Assembly: GCA_964597845.1 (NCBI GenBank)
Contig: CAZQZR010000001.1
Coordinates: 6,722 to 70,721 of the forward strand
Reading direction: 5' to 3'
DNA from: an uncultured bacterium
Lineage (GTDB): Bacteria > Hydrothermota > Tepidihabitantia > Tepidihabitantales > Tepidihabitantaceae
Length of the DNA stretch: 64,000 nucleotides
The stretch's first letter is position 1; the number at the start of each line of letters is the position of its first letter. The position numbers and the translations under genes are program-made. Shown in pieces: positions 3,000 to 64,000 of this stretch. The notes below the pieces were generated by a model, which saw nothing but the letters and a program-made list of their open reading frames with translations, was not told where the DNA came from and did not search any database.

Positions 3000-3535
3000 T
3001 GTCCTGTACGCCCCAGCGAGCGGATGAGATCAGGGTCGAGTTGTCCCTTCGCTCCCCAGCCCTTCACGCCGTCGGGAATCTGGGGCCGGAACTGCGCGTA
3101 CAGGGCAAAGGCCCGCGCTGCCAGCACGTCAGGCTTCATCGACCGGGCCAGTTCTTCCATCGCCGCTCGTACCACTGCCAGATGCTCCCCGAATTTGGAC
3201 TCTAAGTACGCTTCCATGCTCTTGCCCGAGACCGGTACGCCCTTGTTTAGTGCCCGGACCCCGTCCGGCGTCCGCACGACCGGAATCTCCCGCCCCATTA
3301 ACTCCACCGCATCTCTCGCCTCTCGCTTCTCGCCTCTCGCCTCTCGCTTCTCGCTTCCCGCCTCTCGCTTCGTGTATATCCCCAGCCGCTGTCCCTTGCT
3401 CTGCGCGTTCAGGCCGGTCACCGCCTTGCCGAGCGACAGCGCCTCATCGCGGCCGAACCCCAGCCGCTCGGCAACGACCGATGCCCACAAAGCCAGCACC
3501 GGTGCGCGGTTAATCAGCATCGCTTCACCTGCCAT
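2996..3535 (-). CDS. conserved hypothetical protein translationally coupled to the AAR-like gene; carries an in-frame repeat insert
   Basis: 179-aa ORF whose stop overlaps the AAR-like ATG (ATGA). Residues SEKREARGEKREAR are encoded by the tandem TCTCGC(C/TT) array at 3312-3372. Confidence 0.55.
   Translation of the reverse strand: MAGEAMLINRAPVLALWASVVAERLGFGRDEALSLGKAVTGLNAQSKGQRLGIYTKREAGSEKREARGEKREARDAVELMGREIPVVRTPDGVRALNKGVPVSGKSMEAYLESKFGEHLAVVRAAMEELARSMKPDVLAARAFALYAQFRPQIPDGVKGWGAKGQLDPDLIRSLGRTGQ
3312..3372. repeat. tandem 7-8-nt array TCTCGCC/TCTCGCTT inside a CDS
   Basis: TCTCTCGCCTCTCGCTTCTCGCCTCTCGCCTCTCGCTTCTCGCTTCCCGCCTCTCGCTTCG. Its reverse complement shares the GAGGCGAGAAGC word with 53300-53320 and 54160-54175. 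Confidence 0.85.
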
Positions 3536-7472: not shown

Positions 7473-7501
7473 CAGATTGCAGATTGTAGATTGCAGATTG
7501 C
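7473..7501. repeat. heptamer array CAGATTG x4 in the tRNA-Lys/tRNA-Leu spacer
   Basis: CAGATTGCAGATTGTAGATTGCAGATTGC; a related CAGATTGTAGACTACAGATTAGAG lies at 7645-7668 in the next spacer. Confidence 0.85.
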
Positions 7502-35565: not shown

Positions 35566-35825
35566 TTGCTTTCAAGCGAGGTTTTGAACGAGGTTTGAAA
35601 TGTGCTTTGAACCGAGCTTTTGATTAAGCTTTTCCGCGAGCTTTGAACCAAGCTTTGAAACAAGCTGTTTCTTGAGCTTTTCCTTGAGCTTTGAGTCGAG
35701 CTTTGCGAGAAGCTTTGAAGTAAGCTTTTGTCCGAGCTTTGAAATGAACTTTCAAGTGAGTTTTTCAAGAAGCTCTTGAGTGAGCTTTCTCGGGAGCTTT
35801 CCGGCGAGCTTTGTGGAAAGCTGTT
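35566..35825. repeat. 12-nt-period array (about 21 units) of GAGCTTTS octamer plus 4 variable nt
   Basis: GAGGTTTTGAAC GAGGTTTGAAAT GTGCTTTGAACC GAGCTTTTGATT AAGCTTTTCCGC GAGCTTTGAACC ... GAGCTTTCCGGC GAGCTTTGTGGA. Preceded by CCCCCCGGGTT and followed directly by an octamer array. Confidence 0.85.
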
Positions 35826-35867
35826 GCGGGTTGCGAGTTACGAGTTGCGGTTGGCGGGTTGTGGGTG
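35823..35867. repeat. octamer array GAGTTGCG (intergenic copy)
   Basis: GTTGCGGGTTGCGAGTTACGAGTTGCGGTTGGCGGGTTGTGGGTG. Confidence 0.85.
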
Positions 35868-47854: not shown

Positions 47855-48297
47855 AGGCAGCATTCCTGATGGCGGCGATGGGGACGCTTGCACTGCTGGC
47901 GTGCGGCACGCAGCCGCAGCCCAAGCCGGTGGCCAGTACCGAGGTCCCTCCCAAGACGGAGAGCCTGGCACAGCCTGCCTATCCCGAAGAGGCGCGCAAG
48001 GCTGGCGTCGAGGGCAAGGCGATCGTGGAAGTGACGGTCGGCGCCGACGGCGTGATGCGCCGGTGCAGCCTCGTCGTCAGTTCGGGCAATGCGCAGCTCG
48101 ACGAAGCCGCTTTGCAGGCGGTGCATGTGTCGAAGTTCGCACCCGGCACCAAGGACGGGAAGCCGGTCGAGATGAAAGTGAGAGTTCCATTCCAGTTCAA
48201 GCTTGCTGACAAGCAGATAGAGCAACGCGGTGAGGCGCATGGTATCCCGGGCTGGGCCGGGCGGCACGAGCCGGTCATGCCGGCAATGGAGGTCTGA
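47851..48297 (+). CDS. TonB C-terminal-domain lipoprotein
   Basis: ORF 47761..48297 trimmed to ATG 47851 (ATGA overlap with the TrmB stop). MKAAFLMAAMGTLALLAC lipobox. YPEEARKAGVEGKAIVEVTVGADG is a TonB_C motif. Confidence 0.7.
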   Translation: MKAAFLMAAMGTLALLACGTQPQPKPVASTEVPPKTESLAQPAYPEEARKAGVEGKAIVEVTVGADGVMRRCSLVVSSGNAQLDEAALQAVHVSKFAPGTKDGKPVEMKVRVPFQFKLADKQIEQRGEAHGIPGWAGRHEPVMPAMEV

Positions 48298-48935
48298 TGG
48301 ACGCTACCGGCAAACCATATCCAGTCAGCCTGACCGTCGACTACCCGGAGGGATCGCGCAATCGCGCGTCCGTATTCTTCCGGTTGGTCTTGGTGGTGCC
48401 GATAACGGTGATGGTCGCCCTGCTCGTCGGGACGGAGTACCGCTGGGGTTTTGATGGGGCCGGGCGAGAACTCGCGTGGGCCACAGCCGGGTGTGTGGTC
48501 GCGCCGACGCTGCTGATGATTCTCTTCCGTCGCAAGTACCCGCGCTGGTGGTTTGACTGGAACCTGAACCTCAACCGCTTCCTGTTCCGCGTAAGCGCCT
48601 ACCTGGGGCTGCTCCGGGACGAGTATCCGTCCACCGATGATGAACAGGCACTTCACCTCGAGGTGGTCTACCCCGACGCCAAGATAGAACTCAATCGCTG
48701 GCTACCGCTGGTCAAGTGGTTCCTGGTTATCCCCCATATCATCGTCCTTTGCTTCCTCGACGTCGCCGCGTACGTTTGTGTCATCATCGCCTGGTTCGCG
48801 ATTCTCTTTACCGGCCGGTACCCGGGCGCTCTGTTCGACTTCGTGGTTGGAGTGATGCGCTGGCAGGCGCGGGTGATCTGGTACGCGGTGCTGTTCTCGA
48901 CCGACCATTACCCGCCGTTCAGCCTGGAAGCCTGA
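48297..48935 (+). CDS. DUF4389-family membrane protein
   Basis: 212 aa. The start overlaps the previous stop (TGATG). LVKWFLVIPHIIVL...WFAILFTGRYP pattern. Confidence 0.7.
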   Translation: MDATGKPYPVSLTVDYPEGSRNRASVFFRLVLVVPITVMVALLVGTEYRWGFDGAGRELAWATAGCVVAPTLLMILFRRKYPRWWFDWNLNLNRFLFRVSAYLGLLRDEYPSTDDEQALHLEVVYPDAKIELNRWLPLVKWFLVIPHIIVLCFLDVAAYVCVIIAWFAILFTGRYPGALFDFVVGVMRWQARVIWYAVLFSTDHYPPFSLEA

Positions 48936-48996
48936 GGAATGTCCGCGATTTAGGGAGGCGCGTTCAGTAGCCCAGCACCGCCCGCTGGAATCAGAT

Positions 48997-49073
48997 AGGG
49001 GTTCTGGGTTTCAGGGGTTCCGGGGTTCGGGTCGGGCACTAGAACCCTTGAACCCGCGAACCCCTGAACCCTG
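48997..49073. terminator. long imperfect hairpin built from inverted GGGGTTC / GAACCCC octamer arrays between convergent genes
   Basis: Left arm GGGGTTCTGGGTTTCAGGGGTTCCGGGGTTCGGGTCGGG, loop CACTAG, right arm AACCCTTGAACCCGCGAACCCCTGAACCCTG. Lies between the DUF4389 stop (48935) and the YfiM-like stop (49077). Confidence 0.6.
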
Positions 49074-49076
49074 TTC

Positions 49077-49502
49077 TTAGAAGCGGTGGATGAAGGCGAA
49101 GTAGCCGACGCAGATACCGGCGGCATCAGCCACCAGGTCCTTCCATGAGAAGTGTCTCGACGGCCCGGCCAGGTCGTTGAATTCCTTGCAGACACCCAGC
49201 GTCAGAGTGCCGCCCAGGGCAATACCGGTCGGCCAGGGAGATGGCATGTTGACCCGGTTGGCGCTCAGGTGATACGCCGCGCCGACGGTGACGAAGCTGG
49301 CCGAAAAGTGCCAGAACTTGTCCATCGCGAACCAGCGGTCGGTCTCGGACCGTGGTCGAGTGGTCGAAAGGGCAAGTGACCTAGTGGTCGAGTGGTCGAG
49401 TGGTCTAGTGGCGGACGAGCAGGGGAGCGGGCGAGGAAGGGAGTCGCGCAGGCTGGCCGGAACCGACTGGGCGAGGACGGTCAGCACAAGGAGCAGATTC
49501 AT
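49077..49502 (-). CDS. YfiM/DUF2279-like small envelope protein with repeat-derived linker
   Basis: 141 aa. DKFWHFSASF...CKEFNDL...FSWKDLVADAAG resembles YfiM. The linker SSATRPLDHSTTRSLALSTTRPRS is encoded by the AGTGGTC array at 49351-49414. Confidence 0.55.
   Translation of the reverse strand: MNLLLVLTVLAQSVPASLRDSLPRPLPCSSATRPLDHSTTRSLALSTTRPRSETDRWFAMDKFWHFSASFVTVGAAYHLSANRVNMPSPWPTGIALGGTLTLGVCKEFNDLAGPSRHFSWKDLVADAAGICVGYFAFIHRF
49351..49414. repeat. AGTGGTC octamer array inside the YfiM-like CDS
   Basis: CGTGGTCGAGTGGTCGAAAGGGCAAGTGACCTAGTGGTCGAGTGGTCGAGTGGTCTAGTGGCGG. Confidence 0.85.
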
Positions 49503-49656: not shown

Positions 49657-49926
49657 GAAAGCTCGCTAGAAAGCTCACCGGAAAGCTCCCTGGAAAGCTC
49701 ATCAGAAAGCTCCTTCAAGAGCTCATTTCAGAGCTTAGTCCAAAGCTCAATCCAAAGCTCATTTCACCGCTCAGCGCATAGCTCACGCCAAAGCTCAGGC
49801 CATCGCTTCTTCCATCGCTCAGCGCAAAGCTTCGCCGAAAGCTCCGGTCAAAGCTCTTCTGAAAGCTGGACTCAAGGCTCATTTTAGAGTTCTTTTCAAG
49901 GCTTGGCTGAAAGCTAGCTCGAAAAC
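49657..49926. repeat. 12-nt-period array (about 22 units) of SAAAGCTC octamer plus 4 variable nt (reverse orientation of the 35566-35825 array)
   Basis: GAAAGCTCGCTA GAAAGCTCACCG GAAAGCTCCCTG GAAAGCTCATCA GAAAGCTCCTTC AAGAGCTCATTT CAGAGCTTAGTC CAAAGCTCAATC CAAAGCTCATTT ... GAAAGCTAGCTC. Followed by AACCCGGGGGG. Confidence 0.9.
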
Positions 49927-50241: not shown

Positions 50242-50276
50242 CCTCTCACTAGACCACTGGACCACTCGATCACTTC
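50242..50276. repeat. GACCACT octamer array (inverted partner of 49386-49410)
   Basis: CCTCTCACTAGACCACTGGACCACTCGATCACTTC; its reverse complement GATCGAGTGGTCCAGTGGTCTAGTG matches GGTCGAGTGGTCGAGTGGTCTAGTG at 23 of 25 positions. Confidence 0.8.
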
Positions 50277-54271: not shown

Positions 54272-55618
54272 GTGGCTGAGAGAGTGCTGGTTGTGGACGA
54301 CGAACCGAGGGCCCGAGATATCATGGCCGACATCCTGTCGGGCGCTGGAATGGAGGTGTTGCAGGCCGGTGACGGAGAAGAGGCGGTGAGGCTTGCGGGC
54401 GAGCATGAGCTGAACCTTGTGTTCCTGGACCTGATGTTGCCGGACATGAACGGCGCTCAGGTTCTGGAGACAATCCTCGCCGGTAAACCAACCCTGCCGG
54501 TCGTCATGATCTCCGGGCAAGGCTCTATTCAAGATGCAGTCAAGGCCACGAAGCTGGGAGCTTATGACTTCCTGGAGAAGCCGGCGGAGCGGGAGAAGAT
54601 ACTACTGGCTGCGCGGAACGCCTTGGAGCGGGACCGAATGTGGCGCGTGCTGGCCGGGCTGCGGGAGGAGTCGTTGCGTCGGTACCAGATGGTCGGCGCG
54701 AGTACGGCGATGCACGAGATCTTCCAGAAGATAGACGAAATCTCCCCGACCCGTGCGCCCGTACTTGTGACCGGCGAGAGTGGCGGCGGGAAAGAACTGG
54801 TAGCCCGTGCAATCCACCTCAAGAGTGACCGTAAGGACAAGGCCTTTGTGAAGCTGAACTGCGCGGCCATTCCTGAGGCCCTGATAGAGAGTGAGCTGTT
54901 CGGCTATGAGAAGGGCGCGTTCACAGGAGCTTTGACCCAGAAGAAGGGCAAGCTTGAGACCGCCCATGAGGGCACCCTGCTGCTGGATGAGGTCGGAGAC
55001 CTGTCGCCTGCCAGTCAGGCCAAGCTGTTGCGATTCCTGCAGGAGAACGAGTTTGAGCGTCTGGGGGCGACGACCACGATGCGGGTTGACGTGCGGGTAA
55101 TCTCAGCCACCAACAAGAACCTGCGTCAGGAGATCGTCGAGAGGCGGTTCCGCGAAGACCTGTACTTCCGCCTGAACGTGATTCACATACACGTGCCGCC
55201 GCTGCGCGAACGCAAGGACGACATCCCCTTGCTTGCCGACCACTTCCTTGGGCAGCAGTGCGAGGAGAACGGTGTACCTAAGAAGCAGCTAACGCCTGAG
55301 GCGGTCGCGTTTCTGAAGAGCGCGGATTGGGCGCACAACAATGCGCGTGAGCTTGAGAATCTCATGAAGCGGGCCGCGATTCTCGTGAAGGCTCAGGACA
55401 TCACGCCACGTGACCTGGTGCCCCTCATGGAACCGATGGGTACAGCGCCGTCTCACGCCGAGGCCAGCCTGCGCGATGCCCGGGACGAGTTTGAGCGTGA
55501 GTTCATCAGAGCATCGCTGGCCCGAAATAACTGGGACAAGACCAGAACCGCGGAACAGCTCGGCATAGAACGGACGCACCTGCATCGGAAGCTGAAAGAC
55601 CTGGGACTAACCGAGTAG
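54272..55618 (+). CDS. sigma-54-dependent response regulator (NtrC family)
   Basis: GTG 54272 follows AAGGAGG (54261-54267). REC domain VLVVDDE..FLDLMLPDMNG. AAA+ domain GESGGGKE with GAFTGA loop. C-terminal Fis-type HTH TRTAEQLGIERTHLHRKLK. Confidence 0.9.
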   Translation: MAERVLVVDDEPRARDIMADILSGAGMEVLQAGDGEEAVRLAGEHELNLVFLDLMLPDMNGAQVLETILAGKPTLPVVMISGQGSIQDAVKATKLGAYDFLEKPAEREKILLAARNALERDRMWRVLAGLREESLRRYQMVGASTAMHEIFQKIDEISPTRAPVLVTGESGGGKELVARAIHLKSDRKDKAFVKLNCAAIPEALIESELFGYEKGAFTGALTQKKGKLETAHEGTLLLDEVGDLSPASQAKLLRFLQENEFERLGATTTMRVDVRVISATNKNLRQEIVERRFREDLYFRLNVIHIHVPPLRERKDDIPLLADHFLGQQCEENGVPKKQLTPEAVAFLKSADWAHNNARELENLMKRAAILVKAQDITPRDLVPLMEPMGTAPSHAEASLRDARDEFEREFIRASLARNNWDKTRTAEQLGIERTHLHRKLKDLGLTE

Positions 55619-55640
55619 ACGCCTTCACCTGTGACGGTCG

Positions 55641-55818
55641 GAAGTGATCCAGTGGTCTGGTGGCCCAGTGGTCGGGCGGTGTAGTGGTCAAGTGGTCTTG
55701 TGGTCCAGTGATCTAGTGAGGAAGAGACGGCGGCTATCGGTTCAGGAGAGTTCTGATGAAATTCGAGCCATGCACGAGACCGGTCGGAGGTGGTCTAGTG
55801 GTCCAGTGGTCTAGTGAG
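55641..55818. repeat. two AGTGGTC(N) octamer arrays (55641-55720, 55789-55818) downstream of the ApgM-like gene
   Basis: GAAGTGATCCAGTGGTCTGGTGGCCCAGTGGTCGGGCGGTGTAGTGGTCAAGTGGTCTTGTGGTCCAGTGATCTAGTGAG ... GGTGGTCTAGTGGTCCAGTGGTCTAGTGAGG. The second array contains the gene's stop codon. Confidence 0.9.
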
Positions 55819-57064
55819 GAGCGGACGCAAGCTCGCGACCGAGGAGAGTCCGGATGAAAGCAGACCCGCGGAGTAGGCCAAGGGAACCGGAAGCGCAGGC
55901 GACCTCGTCGTAGGACTGAACCGAGTCCGGCTCAAGGCGCGGGTTGAGTATGGCGACCGGAACCGGGCCGTGAACGTGATTGCCCTTCGCGACTGGCGTG
56001 AGGTGGTCGGTCAGGACGGCCACTGTGGCCTCGATCCCCTTGTCTTCAATCCCGTTCATCACGCGCGCGACCAGGCGCGAGTCGAGATACTCGATGCCAA
56101 GCACCTTCTGTTTCACATCCCGCGCGTGGCCGGCTTCGTCCGTCGCCTCGACGTGCACGTAGACAAAGTCATGGTCCTCAAGAACGTTCAGGCAGGCGTC
56201 GGCTTTGCCCTCGTAGTTGGTGTCAATCAGGCCGGTTGCACCGGGGACGTCAATCACGTCGAGCCCGGCATAGACGCCCAGCCCCTTAATCAAGTCAACC
56301 GCAGAGATGACCGCGCCGCTGATGCCGTACTGCTCTCTCATGGTCTTCATCTTCGGCTTGCGGCCCTGGGACCAGAACCAGATCGAGTTAGCCGGGTCCT
56401 TGCCGGCCTTGACTCGGGCTTCGTTGACTGAGTGTCGGGACAGCAAATCCCATGAGCAGCGAATCATGTCGTTCAGCCGGTCGACCGTCGGCTTGGCCTC
56501 GTCGGACTTCGGGACAATCATCAGGTCCTCGACCAACTCGCCGACGTGGTCGTGGGGCGGAAAGCACTCGAAGTCGGTAGAGAGAGTGGGACCAAGTGGC
56601 TGAGGGTCATCTGACGAGAGAAGGAGGAGGTGGCGGTAGGAGATACCGGGGAAGAAGCGAACCTCGTCACAACCAAGGTAACGGTCAACATGACGGATGA
56701 GTTTGTGGGCCTCCTCAGTGGAGATGTGACCCGCCGAGTGATTCTTGATGCGGCCGTCGGCAATGCAGATAAGGTTACAGCGCATGGCGATGTCGGTGTC
56801 GCGCAACTTGACGCCCATTGAGGCGGCCTCGATGACGCCGCGGCCCTGGTAGCATTCGCGCGGGTCGTAACCGAGCACGGTGAGATTCGCGACTTCCGAG
56901 CCGGGCGGCATGTCGTCGTCCACCGTGATGAATGAGCCGCAGCGGCCGAGACGAGCAATGCGGTCGATGGCAGGCTTATTCGCGACTTGGAGTGGAGTCT
57001 TATCGCCGAGTTCGGGGATGGGGAAATCGGCCGCGCCGTCGGCGAGGAAGATGATGGAACGCAT
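55811..57064 (-). CDS. cofactor-independent phosphoglycerate-mutase homologue (ApgM family; proposed homoserine kinase type)
   Basis: 417 aa. MRSIIFLADGAADFPIPELGDKTPLQVANKPAIDRIA is typical of ApgM-like metalloenzymes. Located in an operon with thrC. Confidence 0.75.
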   Translation of the reverse strand: MRSIIFLADGAADFPIPELGDKTPLQVANKPAIDRIARLGRCGSFITVDDDMPPGSEVANLTVLGYDPRECYQGRGVIEAASMGVKLRDTDIAMRCNLICIADGRIKNHSAGHISTEEAHKLIRHVDRYLGCDEVRFFPGISYRHLLLLSSDDPQPLGPTLSTDFECFPPHDHVGELVEDLMIVPKSDEAKPTVDRLNDMIRCSWDLLSRHSVNEARVKAGKDPANSIWFWSQGRKPKMKTMREQYGISGAVISAVDLIKGLGVYAGLDVIDVPGATGLIDTNYEGKADACLNVLEDHDFVYVHVEATDEAGHARDVKQKVLGIEYLDSRLVARVMNGIEDKGIEATVAVLTDHLTPVAKGNHVHGPVPVAILNPRLEPDSVQSYDEVACASGSLGLLRGSAFIRTLLGRELASAPH

Positions 57065-57197
57065 AGTGGTCTAGTGGTCCAGTGGTCTAGTGGTCGAGTG
57101 AAGGGAGAAGAATGTGGACGAGTGGTCCAGTGGTCTAGAGGTCAAGTGACGGGAGAAGACAGTGGTTAAGTGGTCCAGTGGTCGAGTGAGCACGTGG
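57065..57197. repeat. AGTGGTC(N) octamer arrays filling the whole M42/ApgM-like spacer
   Basis: AGTGGTCTAGTGGTCCAGTGGTCTAGTGGTCGAGTGAAGGGAGAAGAATGTGGACGAGTGGTCCAGTGGTCTAGAGGTCAAGTGACGGGAGAAGACAGTGGTTAAGTGGTCCAGTGGTCGAGTGAGCACGTGGTC; shows a higher-order unit of about 50 nt. Confidence 0.9.
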
Positions 57198-58256
57198 TCA
57201 GCGCTTCCTGCCGTTCGGCTCAACGTAAGCGAGAACCAGCCGCACGGTCGCGGCCAGCGCCTTGCGGTGGGTCCTTTCTAGGTTGTGCGAAGCGTTGATT
57301 CCCGGACCAATCAGTCCTGTGATGGCGTCCAGCCCGGCCCGCACCGCCACCGCTGCGTCCGAGCCATAAAACGGGTAGATGTCGACTTTGTATGGTATCT
57401 TCTGCGTCCGGCACAGCTTCACCAACCGCTGCCGTAGTGCGTAGTCAAACGGCCCGGTCGAGTCTTTGGCGCAGATGCAGACCGAGTATTCATCCGATTC
57501 CTGTCCCTTGCCGACTGCGCCCATGTCAACGGCAACCAACTCGCCGACTTCCGGCGGGATGCCGGCCGAAGCGCCGAAACCCACTTCCTCCGACGTGCTG
57601 AAGAGAAAGTGTGTGGCTAGTCGCGGCCGCGAACCGGAATCGGCTAGAGCCTTGAGCGCGCCGAGCAGGCAGGCAACCCCGGCCTTGTCGTCGAGGTGGC
57701 GGGTCTTGATGAACCCGGTTTCGGTCACCTCGCAGCGCGGGTCGAAATGGACGTAGTCGCCGACCGCGACGCCGAGCTTGGCGACCTGCTTTTCGTTCCG
57801 CACCTCGGCATCGAGCCGGATTCTCATGTTATCGAATTCCCGCTTGGCATCGGATATCTTCTTGCTGACATGGGCAGACGGCTCATCGAACAGAATGGTG
57901 CCGCGGAAGAGCTTGCCTGCGCTGGTCTCGACCGTGACGTACTCGCCCTCGACCGTGGCCAGCGCGTAGCCGCCGACCGCCGTGAATACGAGCGACCCGT
58001 CACTGCCGAGTTCCTTCACCATCGCGCCTAGGGTGTCGACATGGGCGGTGAGCGCCCGATGCGGGCCGGTCTCCCGGCCCTCAAGCGTTGCCAGCAGCGC
58101 ACCACGTCCGGTGCGCTTGTGCCCCACGCCCATCCGGGTCAGTTCCTTTTCGACATAGCTGACAGCCACGTCGGTGTGGCCGGCCAGGCTCGGCGTCTTC
58201 ACCAGCCGCACGACCTGTTCGACAACGTAATCGGTCAGGCGGTTATCATTTGGCAT
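57198..58256 (-). CDS. M42-family aminopeptidase/endoglucanase-like metallopeptidase
   Basis: 352 aa. LTAHVDTLGAMVKEL, RHLDDKAGVA and FSTSEEVG motifs. Confidence 0.75.
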   Translation of the reverse strand: MPNDNRLTDYVVEQVVRLVKTPSLAGHTDVAVSYVEKELTRMGVGHKRTGRGALLATLEGRETGPHRALTAHVDTLGAMVKELGSDGSLVFTAVGGYALATVEGEYVTVETSAGKLFRGTILFDEPSAHVSKKISDAKREFDNMRIRLDAEVRNEKQVAKLGVAVGDYVHFDPRCEVTETGFIKTRHLDDKAGVACLLGALKALADSGSRPRLATHFLFSTSEEVGFGASAGIPPEVGELVAVDMGAVGKGQESDEYSVCICAKDSTGPFDYALRQRLVKLCRTQKIPYKVDIYPFYGSDAAVAVRAGLDAITGLIGPGINASHNLERTHRKALAATVRLVLAYVEPNGRKR

Positions 58257-58340
58257 AGTGGTCTAGTGCTCCAGTGGTCTAGTGGTTAAGTGATAGGAGG
58301 AGATAGTGGTCAAGTGGCCCAGTGGTCACGTGATCAAGTG
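58257..58340. repeat. AGTGGTC(N) octamer array between the four-helix ORF and the M42 gene
   Basis: AGTGGTCTAGTGCTCCAGTGGTCTAGTGGTTAAGTGATAGGAGGAGATAGTGGTCAAGTGGCCCAGTGGTCACGTGATCAAGTG. Confidence 0.9.
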
Positions 58341-58757
58341 TCGGAAGCGGAGGAGAGTTTTCTCTCGAGCGCCCGGATAAGGGCCTTGGTAAGACGTTCG
58401 GTGTCACCGATTGACTGCAGCAGCCGGCCCGCTTCCTGGTCCGGCAGGTAGCAGAGCTTTATCGCCAGAAGTGCCTGAGTCTGTACCTCACAGATAGAGC
58501 CGTAAGCGATATAGAGCGAACGCAGGAAATCCGCAGTCGTGCGTCGTCCGAACCCCTCGGCGATGTTCGAGGGTATCGAGACCGCCGCACGCTGCACCTG
58601 TGCTGAGAGACCGTACGCTTCGGCCCTAGGGAAGCTCTTTGTCGCACGGTATACGTCGAGGCAGAGGTCGAAAGCCTTCTGCCACGCGGTCAAGTCCTGG
58701 TAGGTTCTTACTCGCTTTTTCTCTGTCACTGGATCACTGGACCACTGGGTCACTTGA
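58311..58757 (-). mobile_element. putative IVS-like cassette: four-helix-bundle ORF enclosed by ~30-nt imperfect inverted repeats made of AGTGGTC octamers
   Basis: Left arm 58311-58340 is CAAGTGGCCCAGTGGTCACGTGATCAAGTG. The reverse complement of right arm 58727-58757 is CAAGTGACCCAGTGGTCCAGTGATCCAGTG(A). About 26 of 30 positions match by eye. Confidence 0.45.
58334..58729 (-). CDS. four-helix-bundle protein (23S rRNA intervening-sequence protein / Avd family)
   Basis: ORF 58334..58786 trimmed to GTG 58729, just past the thrC stop. YQDLTAWQKAFDLCLDVY...YGLSAQVQRAAVSIPSNIAEGFGRRT..DFLRSLYIAYGS..E is the family signature. Confidence 0.8.
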   Translation of the reverse strand: MTEKKRVRTYQDLTAWQKAFDLCLDVYRATKSFPRAEAYGLSAQVQRAAVSIPSNIAEGFGRRTTADFLRSLYIAYGSICEVQTQALLAIKLCYLPDQEAGRLLQSIGDTERLTKALIRALERKLSSASDT

Positions 58758-60105
58758 ACACTCTCTGCAGGAAGCCCTTGAACCAATGGTAGTCATTCGG
58801 CCCGTGTTCGTAGTGCTCGGGTCTGGCATCAAGCCCGGCGAGCGACGGCGGCAGCGGCGGGTCGACGCCTAGCAGGTGTTGAATCTCCTCCGGGAACTTG
58901 GCCGGGTGAGCGGTTTCGATGGAGATGGCCAGAGGAGAGTTGCGAGTGGTCAAGGATTCCAAGTAGCGCTCGAGGCCGGCCCAGCCGACCGCGCCGTGCG
59001 GTTCGAGCATGGTTTTGTAATTGCTCCAGGCGTCCTTGATTGCCTGCCGGGTCCCCTCGTCGTCAATGCTCACCGGATATATGTCGCGCCGCATGGCCGC
59101 AAAGTCGGGCGGCTTCGAGATGCTGCCCTGTTCATCCATCACCCCGCCGTACAAGGCGACAAGCCGCGGCAGGTTGGATGGATGACCGACGTTCATCGCG
59201 TTGGAAATGCAGACACGCGACGGCACAATCCTCTCGTACCTGCCGGTGGCGACAAACTTCGGGAACTCATCGTTCGCGTTGGTCGCGATGACGAACCGGT
59301 CGACCGGCAGGCCCATGCGCCGGGCAATCAGGCCGCCGCAGATGTCGCCGAAGTTGCCGGACGGGACCGAGATGATTGCCGCTTCGTCGTTCTCCTGCAG
59401 CCGGGCCCAAGCGTACAGGTAGTAGACCGCCTGCGGCAGGAGCCGGCCGATGTTGATGGAGTTGGCCGAGGAGAACCGGATGCGCCCGAGTTCCGGGTCG
59501 GTGAAAGCGCGCTTGACCAGAGCCTGACAGTCGTCGAACTGGCCGTCGACGCCGATGACCGTAACATTGCCGCCGAGCGTCGTCATCTGCTTGCGCTGGC
59601 GGTCCGAGACTTCCTTAATAGGAAAGAGGACGACCATCGAGATGCGGTCGACGTTATGGAACGCGTGGGCGACCGCGGAGCCGGTATCGCCGGACGTGGC
59701 GGTCAGGATAACCAACTCGCCGCCTTCCTGCGCGAGGAAGTAGCGCATCATCCGAGCCATCATCCGGGCCGCGAAGTCTTTGAAGCTCGCGGTCGGGCCT
59801 TGGTCGAGGCGCATGAGGAACGTGCGGCCATAGACGCGTTCGAGCGGCACCGCGTAGTTGTAGCACTCGGCGCAGAGCCGCATCAGTTCATCGTCGGGAA
59901 TCAGGCCTTCCGTGTAGCGCCGCAGCACGGCAAAGGCGATTTCCGGGTACGGCTTCTCGCGGAACCCGATTATCTCGTCGAGCGGTATGCGAGGAATCTC
60001 GCGCGGCATGTACAGGCCCTTGTCCGGGGCTTGGCCGGTGAGAAGCGCGGTGCGTAAGTCGACGTCGGGGGAGGACAGGTTGGTGCTGTATAGAAGAGGG
60101 TTCAC
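58750..60105 (-). CDS. thrC: threonine synthase
   Basis: 451 aa. PLP-lysine motif GPTASFKDFAARMM, SGDTGSAVAH and SGNFGD. AGGAG 7 nt upstream of GTG 60105. Confidence 0.9.
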   Translation of the reverse strand: MNPLLYSTNLSSPDVDLRTALLTGQAPDKGLYMPREIPRIPLDEIIGFREKPYPEIAFAVLRRYTEGLIPDDELMRLCAECYNYAVPLERVYGRTFLMRLDQGPTASFKDFAARMMARMMRYFLAQEGGELVILTATSGDTGSAVAHAFHNVDRISMVVLFPIKEVSDRQRKQMTTLGGNVTVIGVDGQFDDCQALVKRAFTDPELGRIRFSSANSINIGRLLPQAVYYLYAWARLQENDEAAIISVPSGNFGDICGGLIARRMGLPVDRFVIATNANDEFPKFVATGRYERIVPSRVCISNAMNVGHPSNLPRLVALYGGVMDEQGSISKPPDFAAMRRDIYPVSIDDEGTRQAIKDAWSNYKTMLEPHGAVGWAGLERYLESLTTRNSPLAISIETAHPAKFPEEIQHLLGVDPPLPPSLAGLDARPEHYEHGPNDYHWFKGFLQRVFK

Positions 60106-60512
60106 GGCTTGGCTCCTGGAGGATTCGAGGATTCAAGGATTCGAGGATTCGAGTGCCGGCGTTCCAGTGACTTTATCAGTGACATCATCATTCGTTCCAC
60201 TTCGCGGATATCCTCGGATAGCTTGCCATATTCATCCAGCTTGAGGTATTCAAGGTCGCGAGCTAGCATCGTCTGGGTCTCCAGTTCGCTGTTCGAAGCG
60301 TACGCGAAGCGCAGCGAACGTAGGTAGTCACCAGTCGTGCTGCGGCTGTATCCCTCCGCGATATTGGACGGAACCGAGACCGCGGCCCGGCGCATCTGAG
60401 AGGTTAGGCCGTAGCGCTCGTCGGCCGGGAACTTCCTTGTCGACCGATAGACCTGCAGGCAGATTCGGTACGACTTCTGCCAGACCAGCAGGTCGCGGTA
60501 ATTCCTTAGCAC
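60102..60512 (-). CDS. four-helix-bundle protein (23S rRNA intervening-sequence protein / Avd family), second copy
   Basis: 136 aa. YRDLLVWQKSYRICLQVY...YGLTSQMRRAAVSVPSNIAEGYSRST..DYLRSLRFAYAS..E. The C-terminal RHSNPRILESSNPPGAKP is read-through of the AGGATTC array. Overlaps the thrC start by 4 nt. Confidence 0.8.
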   Translation of the reverse strand: MLRNYRDLLVWQKSYRICLQVYRSTRKFPADERYGLTSQMRRAAVSVPSNIAEGYSRSTTGDYLRSLRFAYASNSELETQTMLARDLEYLKLDEYGKLSEDIREVERMMMSLIKSLERRHSNPRILESSNPPGAKP

Positions 60513-60555
60513 GCTCCGCCCACTGGAATCCTAGAATCCTCGATTCCTCGAACCC
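60118..60555 (-). mobile_element. putative IVS-like cassette: second four-helix-bundle ORF enclosed by inverted AGGATTC octamer arrays
   Basis: Left arm 60118-60155 is GGAGGATTCGAGGATTCAAGGATTCGAGGATTCGAGTG. The reverse complement of right arm 60521-60555 is GGGTTCGAGGAATCGAGGATTCTAGGATTCCAGTG. About 23 of 27 positions match in the aligned core. Confidence 0.45.
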
Positions 60556-60558
60556 TTC

Positions 60559-61968
60559 CTACTTCACCGCTCCCAGCGCTTGGTCTAGGTCCCCGATGAT
60601 ATCATCCGGGTGTTCCGCACCTACCGACAGCCGAATCAGGTCCGCAGGGACGTCGGCCTTCTTGCGTGCTTCTTCGCCCTGGAGGAGATGCGTCGAGATG
60701 GCCGGGATGGTGGCAACGGTCTTGACCCGGCCTAGGTCGGTGGCGCGCCAGATCATTTCGAACCGGTCGAACGCCTTGCGCGCCGCGTCCGGGCCGCCCT
60801 TCACCCGAAACGACATCATGTGGGTGTAACGGTTGACCGGCTTGCCGTAGTGCTCGTCGTGCTCGGCGTCGACGAGCCACAAGTACTTCTTCGCCAGTTC
60901 GTGCAGGGGGTAGCTTTCGAGCCCGAGGTAATTGACCGCGAGCACGGCCGCGTGACCTTCGAGGAACCGTGCCACTGTCATCGCGGTCTGGCTCCAGGCG
61001 TCGACGCGGGCGCGCAGCGTGCGCAGGTCGGACATCGTCATCGTGGCCTGAAACGGGTGCAGGCAGCCGCCCTGCTCGCGCTGGGGGTAGCGCTTGAGGT
61101 AGAGCGCGAAGTTGGCTTTCAGTTCGTCGTTCGGAATGTTTGAGACAATCGGCATACGAGCGATAACCGCGCCGGCCATCCCGAGACCGGAGCAGCTCAT
61201 CACCTTGGTCGCAGAGTGAATTACCACGTCGGTGCCGTGCAGCAGCGGCCGCATCAGGGCGGGCGAGGCGATGGTCGCGTCGAGCACGAGCGGGATGCCG
61301 TGTTCGTGGGCCAGCGCGGCGACCGCCGCGATGTCGAAGAAGGCAAGGCCCGGGTTGGACGGCATTTCGCCATAGAGGAAGCGGGTATTCTTGTCGATGG
61401 TGCGGCGCCACTCGTCAAGGTTGCTGGAATCGACCACCATCCGGACGTCCATGCCGCGCTCGCACTTCAGGCGCGCGTCGAAGAGTTGGTAGGTGCCGCC
61501 GTAGAGCTGGCAGGTGGAAACGAAATTCGGCGGCTTGGTGCCGGGCAGGGCCATCAGCGCATCGACCGTGTTGCCGATGGCGGCCATGCCGGAAGAGTAG
61601 ACGCAGCACCCGGCCTCGATGTCTGAACCGTAGGTTTCCAGCAGGGCGAGCTTGTCTTCAAGGAACCCGAGCGTCGGGTTGTGGATGCGGGTGTAGCACC
61701 AGGTTGGTATTTTGTAGCCAAGGGCAAGCTCCATTTCGTCCGAGTCGCGGTAGGCCTGCGCCGACGAGAAAAGGGTCGGCTCCATTATCGCGCCGTGATT
61801 GTGGTCGAGCGACTCCGCGACCGTGTAGAGTCCGTGGACGGCAATCGTGTCGAAGCGGAGCTTGCGGGCGCGGACGATGTCGCGCTGACGTGCGGCCAGC
61901 GCCTGGTCTGCCCGGTCAATATACTTCTTCAGGCCTTCGCTGTGCGAAGGCGGGGTCGAATGGTCCAT
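60559..61968 (-). CDS. Cys/Met-metabolism PLP enzyme, O-acetylhomoserine sulfhydrylase-like
   Basis: 469 aa. FDTIAVHG, MAAIGNTV and PLP lysine in VIHSATKVMS. Operon with thrC. Confidence 0.75.
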   Translation of the reverse strand: MDHSTPPSHSEGLKKYIDRADQALAARQRDIVRARKLRFDTIAVHGLYTVAESLDHNHGAIMEPTLFSSAQAYRDSDEMELALGYKIPTWCYTRIHNPTLGFLEDKLALLETYGSDIEAGCCVYSSGMAAIGNTVDALMALPGTKPPNFVSTCQLYGGTYQLFDARLKCERGMDVRMVVDSSNLDEWRRTIDKNTRFLYGEMPSNPGLAFFDIAAVAALAHEHGIPLVLDATIASPALMRPLLHGTDVVIHSATKVMSCSGLGMAGAVIARMPIVSNIPNDELKANFALYLKRYPQREQGGCLHPFQATMTMSDLRTLRARVDAWSQTAMTVARFLEGHAAVLAVNYLGLESYPLHELAKKYLWLVDAEHDEHYGKPVNRYTHMMSFRVKGGPDAARKAFDRFEMIWRATDLGRVKTVATIPAISTHLLQGEEARKKADVPADLIRLSVGAEHPDDIIGDLDQALGAVK

Positions 61969-61980
61969 ATTTCCTCCTGA

Positions 61981-63189
61981 CTATGCGGTGCGGGACATGC
62001 CGAGCAGTTCGGCGATGACCCCGAAACCAACCGCCATGCTTGCGAGCCAGACTGCCCAGCCCGCGAACGGGATGGCGCACAGACCAAAGACGATTACGAT
62101 ACCTACCGGCGCGGCCCACCAGAGCGATATTTCAGGCGCGCCGAAGATACGGAACAGCAGCCGCCCGGTGAACAGGCCGGCAAGGACTTTGGCGAGGTAC
62201 AGCGAGACAATGTACGCGGCCGCGGCGATGAGTCCGGCCGGGATCGTGATGATGAGCGCAAAGGCGACGAGGATGCTCATCGGGCCGATAAGAAACCCGA
62301 TGGCGCCGAACCCGACGGTGCGACCCCAATGGCTAAGCGAGCGAGCGAGCCCCTCATTGAGCACGTGCTTCCAGATTGCCACAAGCAGGAACCCGACCAC
62401 GAGCGCGCCGAGTATCGAGAGAATCGTGAACGGCAGGAAGAACGTGACGAACATGCCGGGCCGGGGTTTCATATTCCGCATGTCTTCGATTTCTTTGGGT
62501 GACGGGAGCAGCACGTGGTCGATGTTGCCGAAGACCATGTCGGGGTTGCCGATATCGATCTTCTTGTTCGAACGGTAGCGCAGGTTGCCATAGACACGGG
62601 CGTCGGGCGTAAGCGTGAGTTTGTCGGCCACGGTTACGTCGACGTTGCCGTCAATCGAGCCGGAGATGACGACTTCGTTGGCAACCGCCTTGACGTCGCC
62701 GCGCACCGTGCCGGCGATTTCGAGCGACCGGCAACCGGCGGCGACGTCGCCCCGCACTTCGGAGTTCTTGCCGATGACGAGGTTTGCACAGCCGGCCAGC
62801 ACGTCCTGGCCAACCGCGCCGTTGATGTAGACTGTGCCGGCGCCGGTCCGGACCGCGCCGCCGACGCGACCGCTGACGTTCAGCGTCGCGCAGAGGGCGA
62901 CAACGTCGCCGGCAACAGCGCCCGCGACATCCACGCTCTGGGCGGCAAGGAAGAGGTTACGCGTGACCGGGCCGGAGACGTTGATGGACTGGGCCCCGGC
63001 GATGGCCGAACCGTCAAGCCGGCCCTCGATGCGGAGCATCGTGCCGCCGTAGTAGATGTCGCCGATGCGCGTTTCTTCTGCCGGCAGCGTATACCCCGGT
63101 TCACTGACGAACTGAGCGGCGAGGGAAAGAGTGAAGAGAGAAGAGAGAAGAGTGAAGAGGCGAACCGGACGGGACAGCAGCTCACTCAC
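61981..63189 (-). CDS. bactofilin-like (polymer-forming cytoskeletal repeat) domain fused to a polytopic membrane domain
   Basis: 402 aa. Repeated G.V.GDV/V.G.V.G beta-helix-like units (SGRVGGAVRTGAG..INGAVGQDV..), then 4-5 TM segments. The N-terminal FTLLSSLFTLS is encoded by a GAAGAG word array. Confidence 0.6.
   Translation of the reverse strand: MSELLSRPVRLFTLLSSLFTLSLAAQFVSEPGYTLPAEETRIGDIYYGGTMLRIEGRLDGSAIAGAQSINVSGPVTRNLFLAAQSVDVAGAVAGDVVALCATLNVSGRVGGAVRTGAGTVYINGAVGQDVLAGCANLVIGKNSEVRGDVAAGCRSLEIAGTVRGDVKAVANEVVISGSIDGNVDVTVADKLTLTPDARVYGNLRYRSNKKIDIGNPDMVFGNIDHVLLPSPKEIEDMRNMKPRPGMFVTFFLPFTILSILGALVVGFLLVAIWKHVLNEGLARSLSHWGRTVGFGAIGFLIGPMSILVAFALIITIPAGLIAAAAYIVSLYLAKVLAGLFTGRLLFRIFGAPEISLWWAAPVGIVIVFGLCAIPFAGWAVWLASMAVGFGVIAELLGMSRTA
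63121..63163. repeat. GAAGAG/GTGAAGAG word array at the 5' end of a CDS
   Basis: GAGGGAAAGAGTGAAGAGAGAAGAGAGAAGAGTGAAGAGGCG; related AGTGAAGAGTGAAG lies in the tRNA spacer at 7989-8003. Confidence 0.8.
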
Positions 63190-63652
63190 GGTTCTTCCTC
63201 ATCTCTTCGCGGATGCGTTCTTCTATCTTCCGGCCCAGTTCGTCCCAGTCCTGGTCGGATTCGGCCGGACGCTCCTGCGTGCGCCATGATGCAAGGCCTT
63301 CCTTGACGCTGTCGCCGATGTGCCGGCCGACTCGGTCCCAGTCGGGTTCGTGCCGGTGCTTGTGGCGGTGGGCGACGCTGCGTGCGCCGCTGCCGAGCGA
63401 AATCATGCAGCCGAGCAGGAAGCCGAGATTGTAGCCCCAGCCGACGTTGTTGGGTTCATAGACCCCGACGTCCTTCGTGAACAGGCTGACGACGAACGTG
63501 ACAATGATTATAAGCCCGTGCCAGAGCCCGGCCCAGAAGTTGGCGGGCCTGCCGGTCTCGGTGCTGTAGCGGACGTTGCCGGGCGCGCAGCTCGTGACCA
63601 GAAGCAGAAGCAGAAATCCGGCGAGCAGAATTTTCGGCCAGTTATGTGTCAT
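63182..63652 (-). CDS. lipoprotein/membrane protein with charged C-terminal tail
   Basis: 156 aa. GGAGGTG SD. LLLLLVTSCAP lipobox and two TM segments. Tail DWDELGRKIEERIREEMRKNRE. Confidence 0.6.
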   Translation of the reverse strand: MTHNWPKILLAGFLLLLLVTSCAPGNVRYSTETGRPANFWAGLWHGLIIIVTFVVSLFTKDVGVYEPNNVGWGYNLGFLLGCMISLGSGARSVAHRHKHRHEPDWDRVGRHIGDSVKEGLASWRTQERPAESDQDWDELGRKIEERIREEMRKNRE

Positions 63653-63683
63653 AGCGGCACCTCCATTACGATACGAATATCAT

Positions 63684-63711
63684 ACTCTACTGCGGCAAAT
63701 GTGGCGGTCAA
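63684..63711 (-). promoter_or_regulatory. possible promoter of the long minus-strand operon (63652 down to 55811)
   Basis: Minus strand reads TTGACC, 16 nt, TAGAGT. Confidence 0.35.
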
Positions 63712-63796
63712 GTGTCCGGTCAGTTCCCAAACCCGAGATTAACCACAAAGAGTTACAAAGCGAACCGGCCAGGACCCCGGAACCCGCGGTTGGCGC

Positions 63797-64000
63797 TAGT
63801 CATGGTGCTTGCGCATCTCTTCAAGGATGTGTTGCTCGATTCTGCGACTGAGATCATCCCAGTCGGTGTTTCCCTCATGCTCCGCGCTGCGCCACTCGGC
63901 CAGTCCCTGGCTGGTGCCGGTCTGGATGCGCTCGCTGATTCGCTTCCAGCCGGCCTCGGTGCGGCGCCGGTGGTGATGCCGGCGAGACGGACGCAGGAAG
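63797..64000 (-). CDS. C-terminal fragment of a paralogue of the 63182..63652 protein (5' end beyond the right window edge)
   Basis: Hand translation: ...HHHRRRTEAGWKRISERIQTGTSQGLAEWRSAEHEGNTDWDDLSRRIEQHILEEMRKHHD*, the same tail motif as the neighbouring gene. Confidence 0.5.

Follow-up and report, generated by a model that had tools for sequence, protein, structure and literature searches.

A promoter-less four-helix-bundle gene between inverted octamer arms at a metY–thrC junction: a probable intervening-sequence-type cassette in an uncultured Tepidihabitantaceae bacterium

The stretch of DNA analysed here, referred to as the window, comprises 64,000 nt of an uncultured bacterium of the Tepidihabitantaceae (contig CAZQZR010000001.1, positions 6,722 to 70,721 of the forward strand). 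Between its metY and thrC genes lies a small element, denoted cassette 2, which consists of about 440 nt and carries a promoter-less PF05635 gene (S23p/Avd-like, pentameric in crystals) between inverted arrays of about four octamers. Our preferred reading, to which a probability of roughly 0.6 is assigned as a whole, is that cassette 2 is a selfish, turnover-prone cassette of the intervening sequence (IVS) type that shares the transcript of its host operon and whose RNA stem would be cut by RNase III. The components of this statement are held with different confidence. Assignment to a turnover-prone family of IVS-type cassettes with integral arms is very probable, and the steps involving an RNA stem and RNase III stand at about even odds.

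Architecture of cassette 2

All genes around cassette 2 are encoded on the minus strand, in the order metY, cassette 2, thrC. Octamer arms of 36 nt, 86% complementary to each other, flank a four-helix-bundle open reading frame (ORF) at 60102–60556; a repeat finder places the inverted arms at 60120–60155 and 60521–60556 with 365 nt between them, and the element measures 439 nt from outer edge to outer edge of the arms. Each arm is built from four tandem octamers of the unit AGGATTCN (Tandem Repeats Finder: GAGGATTC x4.4 at 60119–60153 and GAATCCTC x3.9 at 60526–60556). Read in the sense of the ORF, the 5' arm (60521–60556, minus strand) is GGGTTCG AGGAATCG AGGATTCT AGGATTCC AGTG, i.e. four units and an inner AGTG anchor. 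It starts after a gap of 2 nt behind the metY stop codon TAG (60559–60561), and 8 nt separate it from the GTG start codon of the ORF (60510–60512). The 3' arm (60118–60155, minus strand) reads CACT CGAATCCT CGAATCCT TGAATCCT CGAATCCT CC.

Inverted octamer arms at this position had been proposed in a preliminary description of the DNA, and they withstand statistical scrutiny: the arm pair scores 23.5, as compared to a mean of 7.4 and a maximum of 13.5 for shuffled 3' flanks, computed in the same way as the scores of 83 related cassettes discussed below. The predicted duplex of the two arms has a stability of −52.2 kcal/mol. Cross-pairing with the arms of cassette 1, a second element of this kind located between thrC and the M42 peptidase gene, yields merely −19 to −20 kcal/mol, in agreement with the earlier observation that complementarity is kept within, and not between, the two cassettes. 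In the predicted fold of the whole minus-strand RNA of cassette 2 the arms are paired (z = −4.6), and none of 100 shuffled sequences was equally stable. Four ENA samples yielded the identical sequence in separate assemblies, and cassette 2 is therefore not an assembly artefact.

An Rfam 15 scan of positions 55000–64000 (E ≤ 1) returned no relevant RNA family, including riboswitches, leaders and rRNA. No promoter-like site was detected in a promoter scan of the window operon, where terminator-like sites occurred at chance level, and none of the anti-phage defence families represented by the PADLOC hidden Markov models was matched.

The encoded protein and the thrC start

The cassette 2 ORF (60102–60512, minus strand; 136 aa) matches PF05635, the family of 23S rRNA-intervening sequence proteins (S23p), with 2.2e-36 and 124.7 bits (cut-off 33.8), and TIGR02436 (four helix bundle protein) with 3.4e-36 and 123.8 bits (cut-off 24). 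The core recognised by these families corresponds to residues 1–119 (60156–60512, minus strand). Among solved structures, the pentameric 2gsc (E 8.6e-23) and 2rld come closest. An AlphaFold model with four helices and a pLDDT of 90.3 gave Foldseek TM values of 0.95 to 2gsc, 0.88 to 2rld and 0.87 to the Avd structure 4dwl. The ORF is also a diverged paralogue of the cassette 1 ORF, as the preliminary description had recognised by eye (52% identity over 121 aa, E 2e-46), and a tblastn search identified these two as the sole PF05635 copies in the window.

Avd (4dwl, 8ube) is a homologous pentamer-forming four-helix bundle, and the possibility was considered that the cassette 2 ORF is itself the Avd accessory protein of a diversity-generating retroelement (DGR). 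Structural similarity to both Avd entries and weak matches to the bAvd Pfam family, to NCBIfam DivGenRetAVD and to the PHROG entry "Avd protein of DGR" point in this direction. The matches fall far short of the respective thresholds, however (35.5 versus a cut-off of 80 for DivGenRetAVD, NF033474, and 28.3 versus 40 for bAvd, PF22296), and the neighbours metY, thrC, the M42 peptidase gene, apgM and a bactofilin-like gene belong to metabolic or structural Pfam families. No reverse transcriptase was seen among the genes within ~5 kb of cassette 2, to which this search was confined, and no template/variable repeat pair was recognised near it, though no search was aimed at such repeats. On the basis of family cut-offs and gene context the DGR assignment was rejected; we regard it as highly improbable.

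The preliminary description had allowed for the ORF being a pseudogene. Among the four cassette 2 orthologues, dN/dS amounts to 0.05–0.15, and the ORF is therefore a working gene under strong purifying selection and not a pseudogene. It continues through the 3' arm and ends in a tail ...RRHSNPRILESSNPPGAKP, because the in-frame TGA usually provided by the first arm unit is CGA in the lineage of the window. Tail and stop codon span 60102–60155 (minus strand; RHSNPRILESSNPPGAKP), and residues 125–136 are predicted to be disordered (pLDDT < 50). The TGA (60102–60104) overlaps the GTG start codon of thrC (60103–60105) in the sequence GTGA. Both features, which had been pointed out previously, are present in all four orthologues. 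The tail is lineage-specific: read-through of the whole arm is found in only 10 of 78 cassettes, four of which are cassette 2 and its orthologues. Directly outside the 3' arm, 7 nt before the thrC GTG, lies the Shine–Dalgarno sequence AGGAG of thrC (60113–60117, minus strand). In relatives with an empty site the thrC start is located 3–30 nt past the metY stop, and the AGGAG sequence therefore came with the inserted DNA.

A widespread family with phased arms

A metagenome scan provided 80 further loci with homologues 52–66% identical to cassette 2. Arm statistics were derived from 83 distinct cassettes, and counts of stops, tails and strands from 78. In 94% of the 83 cassettes an inverted arm pair scores beyond the 99th percentile of shuffled sequences (mean score 17.4 versus 7.4 for shuffled sequences), and between the outer edges of their arms the cassettes measure 445 nt in the median (interquartile range 433–471). 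Of about 165 pairs of successive units, 127 show a spacing of exactly 8 nt. Typically, the 3' arm begins ~3 nt after the core and the TGA of its first unit serves as stop codon (51 of 78), which results in a protein of 123 aa. The window is rich in 7–8-nt tandem arrays, some of them solitary or inside genes, and one may ask whether generic simple repeats of this genome flank a small ORF by chance. Such an explanation is at odds with the arm scores, which exceed those of shuffled sequences here and in cassettes from unrelated samples, with the conservation of arms among orthologues, and with the distance from a 5'-type array to the next 3'-type array, which peaks at 350–450 nt (101 of 133 pairs in 1.1 Mb of loci). 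The shuffle scores and the spacing peak already refute chance, and its probability is negligible.

The preliminary description considered the arm word AGGATTC of cassette 2 to be distinct from the AGTGGTC of cassette 1. While words do vary by sub-family, AGGATTC is not private to cassette 2 and represents the commonest unit in the 83 cassettes (76 occurrences), followed by AGGGTTC (63) and AGGGGTC (50), each with one additional variable base. Arms of the AGGATTC type occur in WOR-3, Nitrospirae, Desulfobacterales and Zixibacteria, and the unit consensus AGG(A/G)(T/G)TC is conserved across phyla. Other sub-families employ different words and remain complementary within the element, the set comprising AGGATTC, AGTGGTC, AGTGCTC, AGTGGCC, AGGGATA, GAGAGACC, TCAGGAG and AGTAGGG. 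The purine-rich, Shine–Dalgarno-like arm is positioned 5' of the ORF in all word families encountered and in 99% of the 78 cassettes, often with its last unit at Shine–Dalgarno distance from the start codon.

Neighbouring genes mostly share the orientation of the cassette, on the upstream side in 55 of 64 cases and on the downstream side in 62 of 73; the stop codon of the upstream gene precedes the ORF by a median of 66 nt. Host junctions include leuD|leuB (Zixibacteria), MCP|CheY (Nitrospirae), SDR|K+ channel (Desulfobacterales), tatA|tatC, FAD oxidase|ETF, formyltransferase|deacetylase and DegT|NAD synthase, among others. On plasmids, tblastn located homologues mainly in Nostocales. Among cultured carriers, Nostoc edaphicum harbours a cassette at nrdB/nrdA in antisense orientation (AGTAGGG x8 / TCCCTAC x5), Anabaena 90 one at cas6/cas4 (ACAGGTG / CACCTGT), and Picosynechococcus 7003 one at cmr2/cmr3 (AGGAGATA / TATCTCCT); Nostoc punctiforme and Anabaena variabilis show heptamers of the TCAGGAG and CTCCTGA types, and Azospirillum units of the GGACAGAG type. 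The loci concerned include HUN01_RS02755 in N. edaphicum, AWQ21_RS15215 in Picosynechococcus PCC 7003, NPUN_RS35280 on pNPUN02 of N. punctiforme PCC 73102 and AVA_RS28115 on plasmid C of A. variabilis ATCC 29413.

Two further details of individual loci are recorded. In a Nitrospirae metagenome-assembled genome (MAG; locus L171, 1390–1500), the 5' arm together with ~25 nt of upstream sequence is tandemly duplicated before the cassette, reminiscent of the 3' modules of cassette 1. In locus L131 (295–392), a DUF3800-V RNA (Rfam, 69 bits) lies ~90 nt upstream of the cassette on the opposite strand.

Presence, absence and replacement

Judged by its thrC gene, the window belongs to candidate division WOR-3; the gene finds its best match (91%) in a MAG from Lac Pavin, and is 72–91% identical across the compared loci (tblastn). 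Orthologues of cassette 2 (87–95% identical) occupy the metY–thrC junction in L005, L006 and L010. At the same site other paralogues, 47–62% identical, are found in L011 (arm word GGGTTC), L013 (AGGGATA), L014 (GGTGACC) and L016 and L020 (both GAGAGACC), so that at least six types of cassette occupy this junction, cassette 2 included. Eight relatives (L012, L015, L017–L019 and L021–L023) have an empty site. Since thrC stays 72–91% identical, the different cassettes are attributed to independent arrivals or replacements and not to divergence in place. Comparison of occupied and empty sites revealed no clear target-site duplication, the boundaries being blurred by remodelled gene ends, and no transposase or mobility enzyme was found inside or near cassette 2.

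Cassette 1 is equally variable. L011 and L006 lack it; in the loci that carry it, it provides the stop codon of thrC (AAGTGA) and reaches directly to the M42 peptidase ATG, and in L013 an internal deletion has left two arms and ~25 codons. Truncated copies exist as well. One relative carries three cassettes in the order metY|4HB|thrC|4HB|M42|4HB|apgM (4HB, four-helix-bundle gene). At the third junction, M42–apgM, the cassette is intact in that relative, a degenerate copy is found in L006, and only arrays are present in the window.

This distribution bears on whether the elements serve the host. The preliminary description had argued that two insertions in one Thr/Met operon are unlikely to be coincidental. 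The cassettes could constitute a domesticated RNA module beneficial to the host, with stem-loops that segment the Thr/Met mRNA and, through processing, differential stability or translational insulation or coupling, tune the relative levels of metY, thrC, M42 and apgM. Cassettes or arm arrays are indeed located at every junction of the operon, the element donates stop codons, start codons and a Shine–Dalgarno sequence to its neighbours, the ORF stop overlaps the thrC start in each of the four orthologues, and in 55 of 78 cassettes the 3' arm closes two or three reading frames with stop codons, as compared to 10 of 78 when shuffled. Conversely, many close relatives possess the same operon with empty junctions, one site is taken over by one paralogue or another with different arms, the same element is found in many unrelated operons and phyla, and the Rfam scan described above was negative. 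A host module is accordingly thought improbable. On account of the empty sites and the unrelated host operons a Thr/Met regulatory role was rejected, and the inferred link to Thr/Met metabolism is not upheld. Cassette 2 is best read as a selfish passenger of transcribed spacers, and the presence of two cassettes in one operon reflects insertion hot spots, not Thr/Met biology.

Two observations on the neighbouring genes were made in the same comparison. The window metY (60559–61968) is only 66–69% identical to that of L005, L006, L010 and L011, the bactofilin-like, thrC and M42 genes of which are 84–95% identical to those of the window, whereas it shares 82–90% identity with metY of the more distant L012, L013, L018, L020 and L021. 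This pattern of identities points to a putative allelic replacement of metY with a breakpoint adjoining cassette 2. Moreover, the M42 peptidase gene (57198–58256) lies between thrC and apgM solely in a subclade made up of the window, L006, L011 and L013; in most WOR-3 relatives apgM directly follows thrC, and M42 itself was therefore inserted into the operon.

RNA stem or DNA sites

According to the preliminary description, the arms are under selection as a stem and do not represent a shared protein-binding site. Two comparisons across the family lend partial support. When arms were swapped between cassettes, the mean score dropped from 17.4 to 14.6 (p = 3e-6). In an anchored test, in which arms were picked solely by their own periodicity, own arms were 75.6% complementary as compared to 68.8% for permuted partners (P < 0.0002), and for the variable columns the values were 55% and 46% (P = 0.0014). 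Arm-to-arm covariation beyond the unit consensus is real but modest. It is clearer in elements of the cassette 1 type (c1-type), where the interior of the units covaries over longer distances: the window arms are AGTGGTC/GACCACT, L174 (tatA|tatC) has AGTGCTC or AGTGCAC with GAGCACT or GTGCACT, and L179 (thrC|apgM, a complete WOR-3 genome) has AGTGGCC/GGCCACT. The part of the claim that denied a binding site is weakened. AGGATTC is shared across phyla and swapped arms pair almost equally well, therefore a conserved sequence, and with it a binding site, is possible.

A number of observations weigh against the RNA-stem account. About 69 of the 76% arm complementarity stems from the cross-phyla unit consensus and would fit sequence-specific recognition equally. 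Among the four orthologues no compensatory change was found in 38 stem pairs, in a set that is shallow and with arms that are nearly invariant; 29 pairs are invariant, two show one-sided changes and seven are broken somewhere. Pairing as such is conserved (94.7% of cells paired), and most changes affect the eighth base of a unit and go uncompensated. Mismatches of the G.U type (120) do not significantly exceed those of the A.C type (97; p = 0.135), i.e. there is no bias towards the sense RNA, and stems average only ~81% Watson–Crick pairing. For cassette 2, the antisense arm duplex (−49.8 kcal/mol) has a stability similar to the sense duplex, hence nothing singles out the sense RNA over DNA. 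The ribosome-binding site of the cassette 2 ORF itself is poor (GGAG 1 nt before the GTG). In Pseudanabaena galeata, a plasmid-borne copy (L190, cas6|cas4) lies between direct heptamer arrays, TAAAAGC on its upstream and CCAAAAG on its downstream side, an arrangement incapable of forming a stem, and only a 3' array was found in Nostoc 7120 (two copies), Calothrix and Gemmatirosa. Finally, an Rfam scan of the 80 related loci placed none in rRNA, therefore the link to true IVSs rests on protein family and layout.

In the principal competing reading the arms function at the DNA level, namely as phased binding sites for the element's own pentamer, a host nucleoid protein or a recombinase acting in trans, which would make them transposon-like ends and the ORF-less hairpins akin to miniature inverted-repeat elements (MITEs). 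The conserved consensus and exact 8-nt phase, the near-equal pairing of swapped arms, the lack of compensatory change and of G.U bias, and the Pseudanabaena arrays all speak for DNA sites. So does the slow evolution of the arms, which differ at 3–16% of sites among the four orthologues as compared to 30–48% at synonymous sites; this conservation counts for the IVS-type cassette as well. Further points in its favour are the internally deleted and ORF-less copies (in the 1.1 Mb of loci, about seven ORF-less hairpins with loops of 18–150 nt and AAGTGA...CACTTGA inner anchors), the capacity of the homologue Avd to bind nucleic acid and reverse transcriptase as a pentamer, and the paired four-octamer sites of Geobacter metallireducens, which were read as IHF/HU-type sites and attract IS110/IS481 insertions (PMC2700814). 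On the other hand, the words are wholly different between sub-families, even within one genome, and nonetheless complementary in each element; own arms significantly outperform swapped arms at variable positions; no clear target-site duplication and no transposase in or near the element was found; and the invariable placement of the purine-rich arm 5' of the ORF is an asymmetry that a pure double-stranded DNA palindrome has no need for. On balance, we consider DNA sites unlikely, albeit the most serious competitor of the IVS-type cassette with an RNA stem.

In the IVS-type reading, cassette 2 would be transcribed passively within the operon RNA, upon which its arms may pair into a stem of ~36 bp around the entire ORF, the start codon of which would lie immediately within the top of the stem. 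A long imperfect double-stranded RNA stem of this kind is the type of substrate used by RNase III, as in the excision of rRNA IVSs, and a cut would free the cassette RNA and split the metY and thrC messages. The protein would be made under selection, and in the lineage of the window its ribosomes would pass the 3' arm and stop on the thrC start codon, so that translational coupling to thrC is possible. Termination on the start codon, in conjunction with the cassette-borne AGGAG, would then keep thrC expressed.

Relation to known systems

The closest precedent is the IVS of Coxiella, which measures 428–444 nt, has a terminal stem of 28 bp and an S23p ORF, and is cut by RNase III within the stem (PMC4990558). 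IVSs of Leptospira, Brucella and Haemophilus also encode S23p homologues (PMC4990558; Ralph & McClelland 1993 as cited there). Cassette 2 shares with rRNA IVSs the PF05635 protein, the size (439 nt, family median 445 nt, as compared to 428–444 nt in Coxiella), the enclosure of the ORF by terminal inverted repeats with a 28–36-bp stem in a unit within about 430–760 nt, the location inside a host RNA with no promoter of its own, and a sporadic distribution suggesting horizontal transfer. In contrast to IVSs, which are inserted in helix 9, 25 or 45 of 23S rRNA, cassette 2 resides at an mRNA operon junction, namely the metY/thrC spacer of 3 nt in an amino-acid operon. RNase III excision was demonstrated for rRNA IVSs and is inferred for cassette 2; the cassette 2 ORF is clearly under purifying selection, whereas Coxiella S23p appears to be untranslated. 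A further possible distinction are the arms, which in cassette 2 are phased tandem octamers.

Paired repeats of comparable design were described in Geobacter metallireducens by Aklujkar et al. 2009 (PMC2700814). Class 1 comprises 24 pairs of four octamers GTTGCTYN, class 2 21 pairs of TCTCCGTS[Y], and class 3 eight pairs of five heptamers MTYCTGA. They are arranged on opposite strands between adjacent genes such as nifD|nifK, pdhA|pdhB and proB|proA and were interpreted as sites of a global regulator of the IHF/HU type (PMC2700814). The likeness to the cassette arms extends to three to five tandem units of 7–9 nt, paired on opposite strands between adjacent genes, and the class 3 consensus coincides with the 3' arm units (CTCCTGA/ATTCTGA) that the cassettes of Nostoc punctiforme and Anabaena variabilis, and only these, display. 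Unlike the cassettes, the Geobacter sites were described without an enclosed four-helix-bundle gene, and their words differ from the AGGATTCN / NGAATCCT of the window.

Tandem 7-nt intergenic arrays in heterocystous cyanobacteria, known as short tandemly repeated repetitive (STRR) sequences, were reportedly described by Mazel and co-workers in 1990. Heptamer arrays of this sort border the Nostoc and Anabaena cassettes; in the window the period is 8 nt instead.

MITEs, as well as REPINs, the REP doublets moved by RAYT transposases, resemble the cassettes in being short intergenic units with inverted repeats, in having full-length and miniature forms, and in their presence or absence among strains. 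They differ in that no clear target-site duplication was seen for the cassettes, that there is no family-wide arm sequence as a transposase site would need, and that the "full-length" form of the cassette encodes only a helical protein of 120 aa. We know of no transposase partner for PF05635 cassettes. It should be noted, as a separate observation, that plasmids gamma (L180) and alpha (L181) of Nostoc sp. PCC 7120 encode the identical protein WP_010994075.1 next to a single 3' array (CCTCTGC), and that these four-helix-bundle genes adjoin ISL3, IS200/IS605 and ISAzo13-like transposase genes.

PF05635 genes within cas operons (cmr3|cmr2, cas6|cas4) were read as having a CRISPR-related function (Zhang & Ye 2013, PMC3936711). 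We observed such genes again in Picosynechococcus, Anabaena and Pseudanabaena, with flanking repeats that are not reported in PMC3936711; our data point to promiscuous insertion at junctions. Literature searches on the arm words and on repeats bordering PF05635 genes yielded no publication that connects such an ORF with arms of this kind; only the descriptions of the Geobacter sites and of the cas operons are related.

Cassette 1 and other arrays in the window

Cassette 1 follows the layout of cassette 2 on the minus strand. Its 5' arm (58722–58766) consists of AGTGGTCN-type units and supplies the stop codon of thrC (AAGTGA). The ORF (58334–58729) was delimited by comparison with homologues; it likely starts at the GTG of the AGTG anchor (58727–58729), giving 131 aa as in the homologues. 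The 3' arms (58257–58345) are built of GACCACTN units in two 48-nt modules arranged in tandem; the final unit abuts the M42 peptidase ATG. Downstream on the same strand, three 48-nt GACCACTN modules with no ORF fill the M42–apgM spacer (57064–57200), and GACCACTN arrays past apgM at the operon end (55643–55816) supply, with their first unit, the apgM stop codon (CACTAG). Solo arrays abut the ATG codons of M42 and apgM, where no Shine–Dalgarno sequence is visible. These solo arrays (AGTGGTCN, or GACCACTN on the coding strand) are C-rich and G-poor, and a role as Rho loading sites is speculative.

An ORF-less hairpin built like the cassettes at 48995–49075 (GGGGTTC x4 / GAACCC x4, i.e. AGGGGTTC x4, with a loop of ~13 nt) is located between convergent genes at 48297–48935 (plus strand) and 49077–49502 (minus strand). 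It lacks the paired CACT anchor and has the appearance of either a miniature cassette or a bidirectional terminator. Nearby, a stretch of 836 nt is enclosed by AGTGGTC arms at 49383–49410 and 50247–50274, which are 28 nt long and 93% complementary and carry AGTG/CACT at their inner ends; a search of this interior for a cargo gene returned neither a PF05635 homologue nor a convincing ORF. The left array (49352–49411) falls inside the N-terminal region of a VanZ-like ORF, where it encodes a repeating TRPLDH, and the interior holds 12-nt tandem repeats (GAAAGCTCNNNN, 49657–49856). The latter region and 35583–35866 both hold tandem repeats of 12, 24, 36 and 48 nt based on AGCTTTC / GAAAGCT, which are mutual reverse complements. 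Further tandem heptamer arrays were noted at 3313–3371, 7473–7501, 24251–24286, 31707–31745, 35823–35866 and 63127–63159; the words of such scattered arrays include CTCTCGC (x8), CAGATTG, GCGAGTT, CATTTTG, GTTGCGG and AAGAGAG.

Implications

Cassette 2 is a non-rRNA form of the S23p IVS element, armed with tandem octamers and sited at an operon junction, and it belongs to a very large and essentially undescribed population. The S23p/four-helix-bundle family numbers thousands of members and gave at least 7992 matches among 8000 candidates scored in one search. Copies with the layout of IVSs and with phased tandem-repeat arms that are located outside rRNA, at junctions, and that turn over between close relatives recast the family as a mobile or selfish cassette instead of housekeeping "hypothetical proteins". 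For annotation, this implies that a PF05635 gene adjoining another gene does not indicate a common function. The carriers include culturable and genetically tractable cyanobacteria, in which the questions of RNase III cleavage and of mobility are directly testable.

One explanation is thereby offered for rRNA IVSs, for PF05635 genes in cas operons and for the paired octamer and heptamer sites of Geobacter. In its broadest form, which we put forward tentatively and hold to be somewhat doubtful, the cassettes would represent a large, unrecognised class of small mobile elements in transcribed spacers, from the helix tips of rRNA to operon junctions, in many phyla. Their Avd-like pentamer may bind its own arms as RNA or DNA, and the "global regulator sites" of Geobacter, the cyanobacterial heptamers and the cas-associated PF05635 genes would be arms, miniatures or members of this class.

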